IMG/VR virus record: IMGVR_UViG_2711768060_000012
Span: 1 to 9,363 of that record
DNA: 9,363 nt
Source: a virus
Lineage: Duplodnaviria > Heunggongvirae > Uroviricota > Caudoviricetes
Direction: 5' to 3' (one strand)
Shown here in pieces: positions 1 to 8,667 of this stretch. The first letter of the stretch is position 1. Each line of letters opens with the position of its first letter. The translations under genes and the position numbers were made by a program. Under the pieces are notes generated by a model. That model worked only from the letters and a program-made list of their open reading frames with translations. It was not told the DNA's origin and did not search any database.

Positions 1-1218
1 ATGAACAAACTGAGCGACACATTGTTAAGAAAACTTCATGGTAAGCCGGCGGAGAAAAATACGTTTTATAGTGATGGCGGAAATCTGAGCGTGAAATATT
101 TAACATCAGGGAAATTGACCTGGTATTTCACTTACAGGGCAGGAACGGGAAGAGGTACGCCACCGGAACGCCTGAAGCTGGGAAATTATCCTGATCTGAG
201 CCTGAAAGCAGCCAGGGAAAAAGCAGCACTGTGTCGCGCATGGCTGGCAGAGGGAAAAAATCCACGCCATGAGCTTAATTACTCCATACAGGAAGCACTA
301 AAGCCGGTAACGGTAGGCGATGCGATCAGCTACTGGCTGGAAATGCACGTAAAGGAAAACCGTGTCGATTACGTATGCCTGAAAAGCCGCCTTAATAATC
401 ACGTCATACAGCACATCGGCAATATGCCACTGGATAAATGCGAGTTACGTCACTGGCTGGCCTGTTTTGACCGGATACGCAAAAAATCACCCGTAACATC
501 TGGCCACATGATGCAGGCGTGCAAACAGGCGCTTAAGTTCTGCCGTAAACGTCGCTACGCAGTCAGTAACGTTCTGGATGATCTCAACGTGGTGGACGTT
601 GGCAAAAAGCCGGGCATAAGCGAACGCGTGCTTAGTAACAAAGAACTGGGCGAATTATTACAGGCGCTGGATAAAAAAATATTCCCGCCCTACTACAGCG
701 CACTAATCCGCCTCCTGATTGTGTTCGGCTGCCGGACCGGAGAACTGAGACTGTCGGAGATCAGGGAGTGGGATTTTAAGGAAATGCTCTGGACAGTACC
801 GAAGGAGCACAGCAAAACGAAGGTCGCCATATTCAGGCCAATACCGGAAAGCATTTTACCGTTCGTCACACAGCTGGTGGAGCAGAACCGACACACAGGG
901 CTATTACTCGGGGAACTGAAACAGGAAGCCAGCGTGTCGCAATACGGCAGATTCACGCACAAAAAATTAAACCATCCGCACTGGTCACTACACGATATAC
1001 GGCGCACGTTTACCACGATGCTGAACGATTTAGGCGTGGATCCGCATATTGTCGAGCAGCTTACCGCTCACCAGATGCCAGGGATGCAGCGAGTCTATAA
1101 CCACTCACGCTATATTGATGCGAAACGTAACGCGCTGGATATGTGGACAGAGCGATTAGAGATACTGGCGGGTGCTCACGAAAACGTAACCACACTGCCA
1201 ATAGCCAGAGAAATATAA
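1..1218 (+). CDS. int: Tyrosine site-specific integrase, P4-type
   Basis: 405-aa ORF. N-terminus (KLTWYFTYRAG...LKLGNYPDLSLKAAREKA) and C-terminus (HDIRRTFTTMLNDLGVDPHIVEQLTAHQ...VYNHSRY) match the P4/CP4-57 integrase pattern, including the HxxR and catalytic Tyr region. Confidence 0.9.
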   Translation: MNKLSDTLLRKLHGKPAEKNTFYSDGGNLSVKYLTSGKLTWYFTYRAGTGRGTPPERLKLGNYPDLSLKAAREKAALCRAWLAEGKNPRHELNYSIQEALKPVTVGDAISYWLEMHVKENRVDYVCLKSRLNNHVIQHIGNMPLDKCELRHWLACFDRIRKKSPVTSGHMMQACKQALKFCRKRRYAVSNVLDDLNVVDVGKKPGISERVLSNKELGELLQALDKKIFPPYYSALIRLLIVFGCRTGELRLSEIREWDFKEMLWTVPKEHSKTKVAIFRPIPESILPFVTQLVEQNRHTGLLLGELKQEASVSQYGRFTHKKLNHPHWSLHDIRRTFTTMLNDLGVDPHIVEQLTAHQMPGMQRVYNHSRYIDAKRNALDMWTERLEILAGAHENVTTLPIAREI

Positions 1219-1360: not shown

Positions 1361-1594
1361 CTGTTTTTTTGTACATTGGCGAATCACTCTTAAAAATATG
1401 TAAAAAAGGTGTGAATGTAGAATTTTATGCCTTTGCATCACAATGAATTAAAAGAGTTTTTATTCTCATTACCCCACTTCTGTAAAATGACCGCCGCCAG
1501 TGTTTGCCATTCCATAAACACCCTGACACAATCCGACGCACCACAACACAATAGGACACCAAATAACTCTTTAAGAAATATCAAAGGGGGAATT

Positions 1595-1783
1595 GTGTTA
1601 AGCACAGATCGCTTTATACGTGAAAAAGAATGTCAGCAACTAACAGGCCTGAGCCGTTCATGTCGGTACCGCCTGGAAAAGGCCGGACAATTCCCATCAC
1701 GGCGTAAACTCGGCGGTCGTTCCGTTGGCTGGTCTTTATCCGAAGTTCTGGCATGGAAGGACAGCTGCGAGGCAGTTCACTAA
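1595..1783 (+). CDS. alpA: AlpA-family transcriptional regulator (phage/island activator, MerR-like HTH)
   Basis: The C-terminal 62 codons of track ORF 1427-1783 (VLSTDRFIREKECQQLTGLSRSCRYRLEKAGQFPSRRKLGGRSVGWSLSEVLAWKDS) resemble E. coli AlpA. GTG at 1595 is preceded by AAAGGGGG (1583-1590). The exact start is uncertain and could be an upstream in-frame ATG. Confidence 0.75.
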   Translation: MLSTDRFIREKECQQLTGLSRSCRYRLEKAGQFPSRRKLGGRSVGWSLSEVLAWKDSCEAVH

Positions 1784-2552: not shown

Positions 2553-2756
2553 ATGAGAAATCATACCACACACCCGCAAGGGCGGGACTCGCACAACCTG
2601 AATAAATACATCTGGCGTTTTATCGCCCTGAGCACGGCACAACCGCGCGTGATTACCATTGAGGCCACCAGCGAACAGGAAGCACGCCAGCAATCCCCGG
2701 CTGGCTGCGTGATGGTATTCGCCGCCCGTATTCGTCAGGAGGTGCGCCATGATTAA
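2553..2756 (+). CDS. Small protein resembling Icd-like host cell division inhibitor family (67 aa)
   Basis: Last 67 codons of track ORF 1836-2756. ATG at 2553 is preceded by GAGG (2544-2547). KYIWRFIALSTAQPRVITIEATSEQEARQ...VFAARIRQ matches my recollection of Icd-like proteins in P4-like islands. The upstream part of the 306-aa ORF looks non-coding. Confidence 0.55.
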   Translation: MRNHTTHPQGRDSHNLNKYIWRFIALSTAQPRVITIEATSEQEARQQSPAGCVMVFAARIRQEVRHD

Positions 2757-2961
2757 TCTGTCACTTACCGACCTTAACCGCGTTCAGTTTCGTGAGAAAT
2801 TCACCGGGCAGCTACTGGTCAATGTGGAGAATGGACGCGTGGTGTGTAATTACCACCTGCCAGATGAATCAATTGTCGCAACAAGGGAATCATTACAGGA
2901 ACTCGCAGAACATGCCGGAATGATTAACGCGAATATTCAGGGGGTGCGCCATGTGCAATAA
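2749..2961 (+). CDS. Hypothetical protein (70 aa)
   Basis: ATG at 2749 is preceded by AGGAGG (2737-2742) and overlaps the upstream stop (translational coupling). No family recognised. Confidence 0.6.
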   Translation: MINLSLTDLNRVQFREKFTGQLLVNVENGRVVCNYHLPDESIVATRESLQELAEHAGMINANIQGVRHVQ

Positions 2962-3418
2962 CACCCATCCGGACGCAGCCGCCGAAGCTATCAAAACACT
3001 GATTGATGCGCTGATTGATATTTCTGTTATCGCGGACAGGGCGCATAAGCACGCCACCAGCGAAACAGAATATGCCGGGGCTTTCGTTCCTCACTCACTG
3101 GCTGTTATGCAGCTTAGCGCCGATATGGCGCTGAATGGGGCTAAAGCAATCCTGATTGCTGATTGTGAAAATGGGGGGGGGGTTATGCGTGATGATCGTT
3201 TTAATGCCCTGAAACAGGAATTTGATGGCGCACCGGAAGATACAGATATTGCGCTGTTATGTGTTGCTGACATGGTAAAAGCTGCATGTTTTTTACTGGA
3301 AACCGCCGAACATTCAGGAACGGGTAGCGATATTCTCAATATTGCGTCGGACTATGCGGAATATGTGGCAGAGGCACGTTACAGAAGAAAATTACCGGAG
3401 GATGTAAGCCATGGATAA
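2951..3418 (+). CDS. Hypothetical acidic protein (155 aa, about 26 D/E versus 12 K/R) containing an in-frame G10 tract
   Basis: ATG at 2951 overlaps the upstream stop. Coherent protein-like sequence on both sides of the G10 run at 3173-3182 (encodes ENGGGV). No family recognised. Confidence 0.65.
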   Translation: MCNNTHPDAAAEAIKTLIDALIDISVIADRAHKHATSETEYAGAFVPHSLAVMQLSADMALNGAKAILIADCENGGGVMRDDRFNALKQEFDGAPEDTDIALLCVADMVKAACFLLETAEHSGTGSDILNIASDYAEYVAEARYRRKLPEDVSHG

Positions 3419-3619
3419 AATCCCTTTCGATGTTCTTATTCATTCTGAGAATGCATTAATCAGGGCGCTTGAATTAAAAACGGTACTGGATGAATTAACC
3501 GAAAATAACACCGAGCGGGGGGGTATTTACTTTCTGCTTTCAGCACTCTGTTAACCCCGGTTATTGATGAATTAAACGCGGTTATGGAAATGCACGACAA
3601 GACCCGCGCAGAGGAATAA
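3411..3619 (+). pseudogene. Small gene (69 codons if corrected) interrupted by a frameshift at a G7 tract (3517-3523)
   Basis: ATG at 3411 with GGAGGA (3397-3402) opens MDKIPFDVLIHSENALIRALELKTVLDELTENNTERGG..., which stops at 3555. The -1/+2 frame opens right after a stop at 3506-3508 and continues YLLSAFSTLLTPVIDELNAVMEMHDKTRAEE to a stop at 3617-3619, just before the next gene. One extra G would fuse the two frames. Confidence 0.45.
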
Positions 3620-3624
3620 AAACC

Positions 3625-3924
3625 ATGAAAAAGAAAATTTCTGGCTTTACTGCCAGCGGCCCCGCTCGGCCTGAAATCCGCCCCGGCGATATTTTCCGGG
3701 ATAACTACGGCGGCACGGTAACGATTAAAAGCGTGGCGGGACGGTGCGTTACTTACCGCCGTGATGGGTACGGCTATGACTGCGTGATGCCTGTTTATCA
3801 GTTCCGGCGTGATTTTTCGCTGGTACAGGCCACACCACGCAGACAGCCCACCAGCAACGCAAAGGCACGGGCAAATATTCAGAAAATGAAAAACATGATT
3901 AACGCATTCAGGGGCACAAAATGA
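3625..3924 (+). CDS. Hypothetical small protein (99 aa), possibly a DUF4222-like prophage protein
   Basis: ATG at 3625 is preceded by GAGGAA. Stop overlaps the helicase start (ATGA at 3921). The IRPGDIFRDNYGGTVTIKSV...RDGYGYDCVMPV motif is tentatively recalled from small prophage proteins. Confidence 0.6.
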   Translation: MKKKISGFTASGPARPEIRPGDIFRDNYGGTVTIKSVAGRCVTYRRDGYGYDCVMPVYQFRRDFSLVQATPRRQPTSNAKARANIQKMKNMINAFRGTK

Positions 3925-5336
3925 AACTGGCACCGAACTTAAAAAAACAGCCACACGACAAAATGACCGAAGTCATTATTTTTGCGGGTAGTGATGCCTG
4001 GGCGCACGCGAAACAATGGCAGGAACAGGACGGGCGACTTGCTGGCGACAACGTGCCACCTGTATGGCTTGGAGACAGCCAGCTTGACGAACTGGCAGAC
4101 CTGAAAATCATCGATGATGGTCGCTATTGTGTCCGGCTGTACAAGGCAGGCCACATCAAGCCGTCAAATATTAATGCCATCGGGCAAAAGCTGGCGGCGG
4201 CAGGTGTACGGGATGCGAATTATTACCCTGAGGGAATGCACAGCCAGAAGCTGGAGAACTGGCACGACTACCTGCAACGGATCCGCGAACAGACAGAGCG
4301 CGGGGAAATACTTACTGACGAGCAATACAGCCAGCGAAAAACCACGCTACCAATGAGCATTGGATCTGCAGGGTACGACACACAGCTTGATTATGTCGTT
4401 AAGGGCGTGATTCCGGCTAATTCATTGTGCAGCACATACGGCGCGAGCGGTTCCTATAAATCGTTCCTCGCGTGTTCCTGGGCGTGTCATGTTGCCACGG
4501 GTCGCCACTGGGGAGGCCGCAGGGTGGCGCATGGTTCGGTGATGTATGTTGTCGGTGAAGGTGGCATTGGTGTCCCCCGCCGTATCAAAGCATGGGAAAT
4601 CGTTAATGATGAACGGGTGGAAAATCTGTACTTGGTAAACCGCCCGATTTTTCCGGCAGTTCCGCTTGATGTCGATGAAATGGTCATCGCTTCCCGCCAG
4701 GTTGAACGGGAAACGGGTAAACCGGTACGCATGATTATTCTGGATACGCTGGCGCGTTGCTTTGGCGGTAATGATGAAAATGACGCGCGGGATATGGGGG
4801 CGTTTATCCGTGGATGTGACGAACTGAAGCGACGCACAGGGGCCACGGTACTGGTGGTTCACCATTCCGGCAAGGATGAAACAAAGGGGGCGCGTGGTTC
4901 CAGTGCATTTCGTGCATCTCTGGACGCTGAATACCGTATTCGCCGGGAAGGTGCAGACAGTGAAGCCCTGGTTATCTCCTGTACCAAAATGAAGGACGCG
5001 GAGGAACTTAAAGAGGCTGCATACGATTTACGCGTGGTGGAGCTTTTTACCGACGCTGACAAGGAGTTAATCACGTCGCTGGTGGTTGTGGATAAGCCGC
5101 GCCCACCTGTTGAACTGGAACGCATCGAGGAAGCCGGGAACAAGACGGAGAATCATGCCGCGCTATGGGGCTGTATCCGTTCACGCACACAGCGCAGCGA
5201 TAAATGCACTATCCCGTTGTTGCGCGATGATATGAAAAAGCTGGGGTATGAGATGAAAAACTTCCGGCGCTGGCTGTACAAGCTGGAAAGAGACGGCGTT
5301 ATCGCTATTGACGGTGATGATGTGCGCCCACTGTAA
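3921..5336 (+). CDS. Replication protein: RepA-like / AAA_25 RecA-fold helicase with an N-terminal domain of unknown type
   Basis: 471-aa ORF. P-loop-like GASGSYKS (4440-4463), Walker B-like VRMIILDTLARCFGG, and LVVHHSGKD typical of RepA/DnaB-type helicases. Followed by an iteron array. Confidence 0.8.
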   Translation: MKLAPNLKKQPHDKMTEVIIFAGSDAWAHAKQWQEQDGRLAGDNVPPVWLGDSQLDELADLKIIDDGRYCVRLYKAGHIKPSNINAIGQKLAAAGVRDANYYPEGMHSQKLENWHDYLQRIREQTERGEILTDEQYSQRKTTLPMSIGSAGYDTQLDYVVKGVIPANSLCSTYGASGSYKSFLACSWACHVATGRHWGGRRVAHGSVMYVVGEGGIGVPRRIKAWEIVNDERVENLYLVNRPIFPAVPLDVDEMVIASRQVERETGKPVRMIILDTLARCFGGNDENDARDMGAFIRGCDELKRRTGATVLVVHHSGKDETKGARGSSAFRASLDAEYRIRREGADSEALVISCTKMKDAEELKEAAYDLRVVELFTDADKELITSLVVVDKPRPPVELERIEEAGNKTENHAALWGCIRSRTQRSDKCTIPLLRDDMKKLGYEMKNFRRWLYKLERDGVIAIDGDDVRPL

Positions 5337-5537: not shown

Positions 5538-5789
5538 ATGACCAGAAAAACCAGAGATAAGACAGCGCCAAAATATCGCGCATTAGACATGACAGAGCAC
5601 GCCTTAAAGGTGGCAATCAGAACGATAGACCGCCATGCCGGAGAAGGATACGCGAAAGCACATCCCGAACTGATAAGCGCATTCATGACCACAGCGGCGG
5701 CAAACTTTGCCACGCTGACAGAGCGGGAGATTGCGGAAGCGGAACAGGTGACAACCATCAACGTTAAAACCGGAGAGCAGACAGCATGA
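5538..5789 (+). CDS. Hypothetical protein (83 aa)
   Basis: ORF with a weak RBS. Stop overlaps the SSB start (ATGA at 5786), suggesting coupling. No family recognised. Confidence 0.5.
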   Translation: MTRKTRDKTAPKYRALDMTEHALKVAIRTIDRHAGEGYAKAHPELISAFMTTAAANFATLTEREIAEAEQVTTINVKTGEQTA

Positions 5790-6208
5790 CAGCACAGATA
5801 GCGGCTTACGGTCGGCTGGTGGCTGACCCTCAGTTAAAGACCACCAGCAAAGGGACACAAATGGCGATGGCGAGTATGGCGGTTCCCCTGCCGTGCAGCC
5901 AGGCAGATGACGGAACGGCGACGATGTGGTTATCCGTCCTGGCGTTTGGCAGACAGGCCGACGCACTGGCAAAACACCACAAAGGCGAACTGGTGAGCGT
6001 GGCGGGTAACATGCAGGTAAGCCAGTGGACAGGCCAGAACGGCGAAGCGCGGCAGGGCTGGCAGGTTATCGCAGACAGCGTAATCAGTGCGCGAACGGTG
6101 CGACCGGGCGGCAAAAAAGGCCAGCAGGGCCAGGCTACTGACGCACTGAACAGGGCAAAACAACAGGCGGGAAATGATGATCCGTACGGGGATAACATAC
6201 CGTTTTAA
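5786..6208 (+). CDS. ssb: Single-stranded DNA-binding protein (SSB, OB-fold)
   Basis: 140 aa. N-terminal OB-fold-like region, Gly/Gln-rich linker (GGKKGQQGQ) and acidic C-terminal tip ...DDPYGDNIPF, resembling the SSB DDDIPF tail. Confidence 0.8.
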   Translation: MTAQIAAYGRLVADPQLKTTSKGTQMAMASMAVPLPCSQADDGTATMWLSVLAFGRQADALAKHHKGELVSVAGNMQVSQWTGQNGEARQGWQVIADSVISARTVRPGGKKGQQGQATDALNRAKQQAGNDDPYGDNIPF

Positions 6209-6820: not shown

Positions 6821-6825
6821 GGTTG

Positions 6826-8667
6826 ATGGAAATTTCATTGTATGAGCCAATCGAAGGCGTAACCGCAAGACAGTTCCGCGATTCACTTATGGCTGCAAAA
6901 GGCCCGGTTACGGTTGCCATAAACAGCGGTGGCGGAAATGTAACTGACGGCATGGCGATGTTTAACGCCCTGAGAACGTACAAAGGCCACACGGTCGCAA
7001 GAATCGACGGTATCGCCGCATCAATGGCTACCATTGTTGCGCTCGGTGCCCGGCGTGTCGTGATGGCTGATAACGGCTGGTGGATGATCCATAACCCGTG
7101 GGGCGTTTTTGTTGGTGAATCGGAAGATCTCCGCAAAAAAGCCGACATGATGGAAAAAATCGGCAAGGCAATGCTTGATACCTACGTTGCCAAAACCGGA
7201 TTACCGGAATCAGAAATCAAAGCCATGATGGATGCTGAAACATGGCTGACGGCTGAGGAAGCGAAAGAAAAAGGATTTATTGATGAAATTTATCCGGCAG
7301 AGGGACAGGCATTAGCCATGGCCCCTGGTTGCGGATCACTGGTAGAGAAATTTACCAGAACGCCGGAAAGCATCATCGCATCGATGAAGAAAGGCGACAC
7401 GGGATCAGCAAACGAAAGAGAGAAGCGAAAAAAAGAAGCCGACGTTTTGTTTGCTTACTGGAAGAATTCTTCGTATGAGTGGTTGCCAGGAATTGTTGAA
7501 GAATTTATCAGCGGTTCCATCACTGCCGAAGAAGCACGTAAAAAACACTTAGAAAAACTGGCGGAAGAGACAACGCCGTGCGCAGGACCAGGAGCAATGA
7601 ACATGTATGCAGGTAACGGTAATATTGTTGGGGATTCAGTAAAAGCGGCGCTTATGGCACGCAGTGGACTGGCAGATGTGGAAAAAGATAACCGCTATAA
7701 CGGTTATTCATTGCGGGAACTGGCGCGCGCTTCTCTGGTGGATCGTGGGGTAAGCGGCATTCCCGGTAATCCGCTGGGCATGGTCGGAATGGCGTTTACT
7801 CACAGCAGTAGTGATTTTGGCGGCGTTCTTGCGGATGTGGCGCATAAATCATTACTGAAAGGCTGGGAAGATTCACCGGAGACGTTCCACGCCTGGACGA
7901 AAAAAGGCACTCTGACAGATTTTAAGGTTGCCCATCGTGTTGGTATGGATGGTTTTAAATCTTTGCGAAAAGTTTTACCAGGCAGTGAATACAAATACGC
8001 GTCCACGTCCGATCGCAGCGAGCCAATTGCACTGGCAACTTATGGCGAACTGTTCAGCATAGATCGCCAGGCAATCATCAATGACGATATGAGTGCGCTA
8101 ACTTCAATCCCCCAGCAAATGGGGGCAGCAGCAAGCCGCACAGTCGGAGATCTGGTTTATGCCGTTCTCGTGGCTAATCAGAGGATGGGCGATAAAAACC
8201 CGCTCTTTGATGCGAAACACAGCAATCTGATTAACAGCGAACTTGATATTCCAGGCCTGAGCGCAGCCCGTAAAGCTATGCGTATGCAAAAAAATAATGC
8301 TGGTGCTGTACTGAATATTCCGCCTCGTTTCCTGTTAGTTCCGGTAGAACTGGAAGACAGAGCAACCCAGCTTATTCGTTCTACGTCGCTACCAGACGCG
8401 CAGAACAGCGGTGTGTTTAATCCATACAATGATGCTCTGACAGTAATCACAGAAGCGCGGCTGGATGCCGACAGCGTGAAATCCTGGTATCTGCTTGCTG
8501 GTCAGGGAAGTGATACAATCGAAGTCGCTTATCTCGATGGTATTGATACCCCGTACCTGGAACAGCAGCAGGGCTTTACGGTTGATGGCGTTACTTTCAA
8601 AGTGCGCATTGATGCCGGAGTTTCTCCCCTGGACTGGCGCGGGATGGTTAAGTCATCAGGTGGCTAA
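6826..8667 (+). CDS. Prohead protease (ClpP/S14-like) fused to major capsid protein (HK97-fold)
   Basis: N-terminus AINSGGGNVTDGMAMFNALRTYKGHTVARIDGIAASMATIVALGARRVVMADNGWWMIHNPWG has ClpP-like Ser/His motifs. The long C-terminal domain resembles HK97-family capsid proteins. ATG at 6826; the track start at 6823 is TTG. Confidence 0.8.
   Translation: MEISLYEPIEGVTARQFRDSLMAAKGPVTVAINSGGGNVTDGMAMFNALRTYKGHTVARIDGIAASMATIVALGARRVVMADNGWWMIHNPWGVFVGESEDLRKKADMMEKIGKAMLDTYVAKTGLPESEIKAMMDAETWLTAEEAKEKGFIDEIYPAEGQALAMAPGCGSLVEKFTRTPESIIASMKKGDTGSANEREKRKKEADVLFAYWKNSSYEWLPGIVEEFISGSITAEEARKKHLEKLAEETTPCAGPGAMNMYAGNGNIVGDSVKAALMARSGLADVEKDNRYNGYSLRELARASLVDRGVSGIPGNPLGMVGMAFTHSSSDFGGVLADVAHKSLLKGWEDSPETFHAWTKKGTLTDFKVAHRVGMDGFKSLRKVLPGSEYKYASTSDRSEPIALATYGELFSIDRQAIINDDMSALTSIPQQMGAAASRTVGDLVYAVLVANQRMGDKNPLFDAKHSNLINSELDIPGLSAARKAMRMQKNNAGAVLNIPPRFLLVPVELEDRATQLIRSTSLPDAQNSGVFNPYNDALTVITEARLDADSVKSWYLLAGQGSDTIEVAYLDGIDTPYLEQQQGFTVDGVTFKVRIDAGVSPLDWRGMVKSSGG

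Follow-up and report, generated by a model that had tools for sequence, protein, structure and literature searches.

The DNA that we analysed, from here on referred to as the window, is a 9363-nt stretch whose features are collected in Table 1. Judged by its gene content, the window covers the left portion of a PICI-type phage satellite, in which an integrase, AlpA, and a replication module follow one another in that order. The packaging genes within the window are a protease/capsid fusion and the small terminase; the DNA stops short of where a portal or large terminase gene might follow. The fusion is a single ORF of 614 aa, with a ClpP-type prohead protease at residues 4–157 and a major capsid protein at residues 301–611; in the O157:H7 relative of the island, the major capsid gene instead stands by itself, and a head decoration gene is present. 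We do not claim that this O157:H7 island is the published cf-PICI EcCIEDL933, as it occupies ~11 kb between roxA and phoQ compared with the 15.4 kb published. Between AlpA and the helicase lies an early operon of small genes, which includes an Icd-like host cell division inhibitor. We note that a 306-aa ORF (1836–2756) is no more than an in-frame upstream extension of the Icd-like gene and that RefSeq labels similar stretches as partial Icd-like pseudogenes; further, an A9-C-A7 run is present at 2401–2417, just upstream of a small minus-strand gene (2180–2359, source annotation). Two of the gene junctions of the operon, at 2736–2748 (preceding gene 2749) and 2938–2950 (preceding gene 2951), are near-identical 13-mers (cAGGAGGtgcgcc-ATG and cAGGGGGtgcgcc-ATG), and a G-rich ribosome-binding site inside the end of the preceding gene seems to be a recurring junction cassette of the operon.

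Table 1. Features of the window, with the two poly-G tracts and the stop codons that different lengths of the first tract would bring into use
Feature	Position	Strand	Remarks
Integrase	1–1218		
AlpA	1427–1783		
Icd-like host cell division inhibitor	2553–2756	+	NF033153, E = 1.4e-19; same operon, upstream
Upstream operon gene, 70 aa	2749–2961	+	phrog_340; overlaps start of N by 11 nt
Gene N portion, codons 1–74 (MCNNTHPD...ILIADCEN)	2951–3172	+	phrog_5146 over residues 1–73; pN/pS 0.34
G10 tract, hypervariable junction	3173–3182	+	Gly75–77 and first base of Val78; SD-like element 2 nt upstream of ATG 3185
Gene C, 77 codons (MRDDRFN...EDVSHG)	3185–3418	+	TAA 3416–3418; phrog_24341 over residues 79–154; pN/pS 0.35
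Latent TGA ending N at G8/G11	3190–3192	+	Overlaps gene C by 8 nt, ATGCGTGA
Latent TGA ending N at G9/G12	3210–3212	+	28-nt overlap with gene C; example protein P0123
Next small operon gene	3411–3619	+	47 aa here, stop 3552–3554; full-length homologue in distant locus L151, 75 aa
Second variable poly-G tract	3517–3523	+	G7 here, out of frame
DUF4222	3625–3924		
RepA/AAA_25 helicase	3921–5336		
SSB	5786–6208		
ClpP-protease/capsid fusion	6823–8667		Single 614-aa ORF
Small terminase	from 8881		

The longest homopolymer of the window is an uninterrupted run of ten G residues on the plus strand. The run lies within an ORF of 155 codons (2951–3418), its first G is codon position 1 of codon 75, and it is read as GGG GGG GGG GTT, which gives Gly75–77 and Val78, the tenth G being the first base of the Val codon. 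A preliminary description of this DNA, made from the letters alone, had pointed to an in-frame G10 run inside an acidic 155-aa gene, and we confirm the frame, the position, and the acidity of the product (pI 4.6). The same description called such a run unusual. By chance, 9363 bases with the composition of the window would hold 0.012 runs of at least ten G if bases are independent and 0.02 under a first-order Markov model. In 1.32 Mb of DNA from related E. coli and satellites, we counted 124 G or C runs of at least 8; 105 were the tract at this site, 11 were a second tract, located in the next small gene, and the remaining 8 lay elsewhere. The exact 155-aa protein is recorded only in one draft assembly (GCA_001269325.1, contig CXYG01000016.1), in which the island adjoins the ilvG operon.

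The consequence of each tract length was determined by deriving the products in silico for runs of G6 to G13, alongside the RefSeq CDS models of G7 to G11 alleles. Tracts of G7, G10, and G13 place N and C (Table 1) in one frame and encode single proteins of 154, 155, and 156 aa, respectively, in which the two parts are joined by a Gly2–4-Val linker; as read from its sequence, the window thus holds G10, a rare allele of the fused type. At G8 and G11, N stops five or six codons past Asn-74 (ending ...ENGGGYA and ...ENGGGGYA, respectively), and the end of N at G8 is read as GGG-GGG-GGT-TAT-GCG-TGA, with the start ATG of C embedded in TTATGCGTGA. At G9 and G12, N gains a 12-residue out-of-frame tail that ends LCVMIVLMP. 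The ATG at 3185, two bases past the run, opens a frame of 73–79 codons at every tract length, and of the 140 loci that could be scored, 132 have an intact C ORF, in any tract state. It had been proposed that the gain or loss of one G would truncate the protein. The data do not support this as it stands: C keeps its own ATG at 3185, and a change of one G would separate N from C and bring back the two-gene layout, with N stopping at 3190–3192 or 3210–3212. We infer that C is initiated at ATG 3185. The duplex predicted for the G run with the 16S anti-SD has a free energy of −11.1 kcal/mol and matches in strength the two best sites of the operon, AGGAGG before 2749 and GGGGG before 2951, which give −11.6 and −10.7 kcal/mol, respectively. 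The layout at G8 can be seen in E. coli O55:H7 CB9615, where the CDS pair 837–1076 and 1069–1302 shows the 8-nt overlap, and this style of overlap is repeated in the window, at 3411/3418, where C meets the next gene.

Protein clusters of the fused length are plentiful, with 63 clusters at 154 aa and 51 at 155 aa, and the Gly-Gly-Gly-Val junction that G10 encodes is present in 49 of the best 120 full-length clusters. We note that seven clusters of fused proteins read ...ENGGGMRDDRF, without the Val codon; judged by their protein sequences, these would have become fused in some way that involves neither G7 nor G10. A model of the fused protein made with AlphaFold2, which is of low confidence (mean pLDDT 53) and was used for secondary structure only, is all-helical in two halves; the Gly run falls between these, in a non-helical stretch where confidence is lowest.

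Comparison with relatives shows N and C to be independent genes by origin and the 155-aa ORF to be a fusion allele of the two. In most relatives, N is a separate gene of about 72–87 aa, and C is likewise separate. An HMMER scan of 1.84 billion representative proteins returned 48 clusters only, many of which are N-only (72–93 aa) or C-only (75–78 aa, starting exactly at M79) with 38–52% identity, the N-only proteins being 42–52% identical. From the contigs encoding the distant proteins, we obtained five distant loci, L147 to L151. In L147–L149, C is a lone gene that follows an Icd-like gene; its ribosome-binding site is AGGAG(G), and the overlap is of the ATGA type. In L150 and L151, the free-standing N genes end in ...ADIKKIQGAHHA and ...ILIADIQEVGHA, respectively, and in L151, the lone N is followed directly by a homologue of the window gene at 3411, the junction of the two being AGGAGGTGGGGC-ATGCATAA. 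The overlap at ATGCATAA is again of the 8-nt style, and the G8 form of our locus (in which N ends in GGGYA at ATGCGTGA) mirrors this overlap of the free-standing N. In keeping with a tract that lies where the upstream CDS comes to its 3′ end, N at G8 ends 8 residues past a conserved IL.AD motif, and the free-standing N proteins end 7 (L151) and 10 (L150) residues after it. Scanning viral contigs with P0157 and P0150, both distant C proteins, recovered no relatives.

Purifying selection acts on both N and C: pN/pS is 0.29–0.38 in both halves and is alike across fused alleles, alleles split with the 8-nt overlap, and alleles split with the 28-nt overlap. Both the fused and the split forms are predicted to be functional. 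We also found that the flanks on the N and C sides recombine independently, as there are loci whose C matches the window at 100% identity and whose N matches it at only 79%, as well as loci with the opposite pattern. Halves that are mosaic relative to the window are seen in loci L048, L135, L134, and others. Many BLAST alignments with complete genomes end at the tract, and the conserved ~50 nt around the run seem to be a recombination joint between modules. Neither the 155-aa protein nor its halves matched anything in Pfam, NCBIfam, or PADLOC or in a profile search of PDB, and the PHROGs matches of the 155-aa protein are to families of "unknown function" only. No relative was found to be encoded in GenBank phage records by tblastn, so the gene seems confined to chromosomal islands.

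We next consider the length of the tract among relatives. IMG/VR and metagenomes were scanned with exact patterns that left the tract length free and demanded 12–13 conserved bases on either side, and the resulting sample is therefore biased to conserved junctions. The IMG/VR scan gave 89 loci (23 with G7, 34 with G8, 18 with G9, 3 with G10, 2 with G11, and 9 with interrupted tracts), and the metagenome scan gave 53 (10 with G7, 27 with G8, 12 with G9, 1 with G10, none with G11, and 3 with interrupted tracts). Of the 142 loci together, 130 retain a pure G run (33 with G7, 61 with G8, 30 with G9, 4 with G10, and 2 with G11), even though the flanks diverge by 20–25%. G8 is the commonest length in both scans, counts drop on both sides of it, and G10 accounts for about 3% of loci. 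All 12 of the interrupted, or "locked", tracts in these DNA scans are in a split phase, which suggests that the two-gene state is the default. By phase, 72 of 147 loci are split with the 8-nt overlap, 34 are split with the 28-nt overlap, and 41 are fused; the loci of the census are phylogenetically non-independent. Five short exact queries also found the junction core in 737 of 5426 complete E. coli genomes, at 883 places. Among these 737 genomes, the number with at least one exact copy was 383 for G7, 204 for G8, 182 for G9, 28 for G10, and 3 for G11, where the G7 count is inflated by the many O157:H7 genomes. Junction copies number up to four per genome. For example, E. coli E2865 (NZ_AP018808.1) has two satellites in one cell, a fused G7 form and a split G9 form, at 1622011 and 2989326.

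Individual strains were also checked at the base level, which gave G10 for E. coli 042, G7 for O157:H7, G8 for O55:H7 CB9615, G11 for ST130, and G9 for JNE141411. Further, strain Z1323CEC0001 has a G7 tract, and Nissle 1917 is among the exact G8 matches. In O157:H7, the length was G7 in 13 of 13 sampled matches, and in O55:H7, it was G8 in seven independent assemblies. The preliminary description had asked how tract length compares in homologous islands and had allowed for a homopolymer sequencing artefact. The comparison gave no fixed length but a range of G7 to G12, finished genomes included, and sequencing error fails as an explanation of the family-wide pattern because the lengths are consistent within the O157:H7 and O55:H7 lineages and because G10 is present in 042. 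It is a narrower matter whether the G10 of the window itself is a base-calling or assembly error, the true length being G9 or G11 and the genes being split in the source strain. Long G runs are error-prone on several sequencing platforms, the window derives from a draft assembly, and G10 is rare among the scanned loci. Set against this, G10 occurs in 28 complete genomes, 042 being one of them, the junction peptide that G10 encodes is common among the full-length clusters, and the consistency of lengths within lineages shows base calls at this site to be reproducible in general. We consider an error in this particular tract improbable.

Several observations bear on how the length of the tract changes relative to its flanks. 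Among 18 multi-member haplotypes with identical flanks (220 nt on each side, 440 nt in total), 8 are mixed in tract length. A rough neighbour-joining tree built from the flanks requires no fewer than 46 frame changes for 138 loci, compared with 59.5 when the states are shuffled. Two complete O111:H8 genomes differ over 3.44 kb only by G9 versus G10 and one other 1-nt indel. We conclude that tract length evolves faster than the flanks. The suggestion that the run is a substrate for slipped-strand mispairing is supported by these data, as lengths range from 7 to 12 in homologues and differ on identical flanks, and slipped-strand hypermutability of the G tract would account for them; the cause is named here from the established behaviour of homopolymeric tracts. 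Because G7 is uniform in the sampled O157:H7 and G8 is uniform in O55:H7, short tracts appear to be stable over the lifetime of a clone, and the label "hypermutable" may apply only to tracts of G9 and longer.

The next small gene of the operon contains a second variable poly-G tract. A nearby G7 with a frameshift had been noticed before, and we locate it at 3517–3523, where it is out of frame and truncates this gene. A second tract of G5, G8, or G11 would yield a product of 68–70 aa, ending at TAA 3617–3619. In relatives, this tract ranges from G5 to G10, and 5 of 14 scorable loci are full-length and 9 are truncated, including all six loci with the window-type context at the tract. A further viral scan for the second tract added no loci to this small census. 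No restart codon follows, and the second tract is thus an on/off or decay site. The proposal that expression at this locus could be phase-variable therefore fares differently at the two tracts: it is not what one would expect of the G10 run, where the predicted outcome is a split with C restarting at 3185, and it is the expected result at 3517–3523.

Overall, we think it probable that the G run is the variable junction between N and C, two small genes that are coupled in translation and belong to the early operon of a PICI-type satellite. The run would be an expanded G-rich ribosome-binding site of C that is sited in the overlap of N and C, and the G8 layout, which matches the distant relatives and has the 8-nt overlap typical of the operon, would be its ordinary form. 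The run would be long enough to gain or lose G residues, most likely by slipped-strand mispairing during replication, and such slippage would shift the locus between a two-gene layout and a single Gly-linked chain, both of which appear to be tolerated.

A purpose can be added to this explanation, although doing so does not replace it. The locus could be an adaptive contingency locus, in which the first tract toggles N and C between fused and split and the second tract turns the next gene on and off, so that subpopulations differ in their behavior toward helper phages or the host. In favor of such a role are the occurrence of two variable poly-G tracts in adjacent genes of one operon, the fact that the two make up 116 of the 124 long G or C runs in the 1.32 Mb of related DNA, and the retention of a pure run in most scan loci despite the divergence of the flanks. 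On the other hand, a length peak at G8 with a fall-off on both sides would also be expected from neutral stepwise drift, the locked tracts are all split and suggest a two-gene default, G7 is uniform in the sampled O157:H7, and the homology searches gave no function for N or C. On balance, we regard the adaptive role as rather unlikely. It is somewhat less likely still that E. coli satellites hold true contingency loci in the full sense, with two hypermutable tracts that produce reversible, heritable "phasotypes" altering the response to, or interference with, helper phages.

Two further explanations dispense with the junction of two coupled genes. The first is classical on/off phase variation of one 155-aa protein, with the in-frame lengths being ON and all other lengths being null. 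The tract is indeed in frame in the window, a change of one G ends the N frame within 5–12 codons, and PGAP calls the G9 allele of O111:H8 a "frameshifted" pseudogene. We nevertheless find this explanation hard to sustain: 72% of scan loci and about half of the complete genomes have an out-of-frame length, the C ORF is intact with unchanged pN/pS in split alleles, both C and N are free-standing elsewhere, and the tract is followed directly by an ATG for which a strong SD-like element is present. The second, programmed recoding, in which ribosomal frameshifting or transcriptional slippage (as in dnaX and the G/GT pair of phage tail chaperones) gives N and an N-C fusion from one allele, is very improbable, since the three frame relations are all common in the census and leave neither a fixed frame relation in homologues nor a conserved direction of frameshifting, even though tRNA-Gly can re-pair on a G run in any frame and the SD-like run just upstream of a stop superficially resembles prfB. 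Efficient transcriptional slippage in E. coli is, moreover, described for A/T runs and is not known from G runs. We also considered and rejected a prfB-like +1 shift at GCG-UGA, which at G8 would enter the C frame, as the P-site tRNA-Ala cannot re-pair on CGU and the frame relation is unconserved.

Returning to the G run as a variable junction of N and C, we compared it with known systems. Classical contingency loci with poly-G/C tracts subject to slipped-strand mispairing are found in Neisseria, Haemophilus, and Campylobacter. As in these, the homopolymer lies in a coding region and is of about 7 nt or more, it is uninterrupted, its length varies between otherwise identical sequences, and by setting the frame, it alters the product; unlike these, the host is E. 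coli, and the gene concerned belongs to the early operon of a satellite rather than encoding a surface structure. The G8 form resembles the coupled ATGnnTGA-type overlaps of phage and satellite operons, being an ordinary 8-nt stop/start overlap with a G-rich SD, but differs from them in that the SD has expanded to a mutable homopolymer inside the upstream ORF.

The closest precedent for the outcome is the tract-mediated merger of the CDSs HCAN_0660 and HCAN_0661 in Helicobacter canadensis, termed "C-terminal phase variation" and "perhaps unprecedented" by its authors (Snyder et al. 2010, PMC2823697). In both cases, a homopolymer at the 3′ end of an upstream CDS determines whether two neighbouring small hypothetical proteins are encoded separately or joined; here, too, the downstream CDS has its own start, and one phase joins both CDSs in frame. 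The Helicobacter merger was predicted in one genome, whereas the junction described here is found in E. coli satellites in three frames across hundreds of genomes; further, N and C are independent genes elsewhere, and the tract doubles as an SD-like element for the gene that follows. Among enterobacteria, the nearest parallel to the tract itself is the G10 tract of rmpA in hypervirulent Klebsiella pneumoniae, which undergoes high-frequency phase variation (10.1101/2025.09.12.675794) and which also speaks in favor of the adaptive contingency role. Like our tract, that of rmpA is an intragenic G10 on a mobile element of an enterobacterium, encodes a flexible linker between two domains, and is commonly G9 or G11 among isolates. 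In rmpA, out-of-frame lengths give a truncated protein and turn the phenotype off, whereas C carries a start codon of its own and is found elsewhere as an independent gene, and the result here is therefore a split and not a loss. The cf-PICI paper describing EcCIEDL933 makes no mention of a frameshift or homopolymer, and among the papers listed by a full-text search of the literature, none connected phage satellites to phase variation or to homopolymeric tracts.

The junction is present in about 14% of complete E. coli genomes, including those of O157:H7, O55:H7, O111:H8, 042, and Nissle 1917, and annotation pipelines treat it inconsistently, as one protein, two proteins, or a pseudogene. RefSeq gives G8, G9, and G11 alleles as two overlapping CDSs; the G8 allele of CB9615 (L152) is recorded as two hypothetical proteins, and the G9 allele of O111:H8 7-58 72A (L156) is the one that PGAP made a pseudogene. 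PHROGs has three families at this one locus, one for N, one for C, and one for the whole fused protein, because what lies there is the length-variable junction of two real genes, and reading it as such corrects calls of this kind. The locus also offers a natural experiment, in which the same pair of proteins exists as two chains and as one Gly-linked chain. If switching is frequent, the locus would rank among the rare documented examples of an E. coli mobile element with simple-repeat variation and would provide a handle on the function of the early genes of these satellites. If E. coli satellites did hold true contingency loci, an E. coli mobile element would have a bet-hedging strategy known from Neisseria and Campylobacter.
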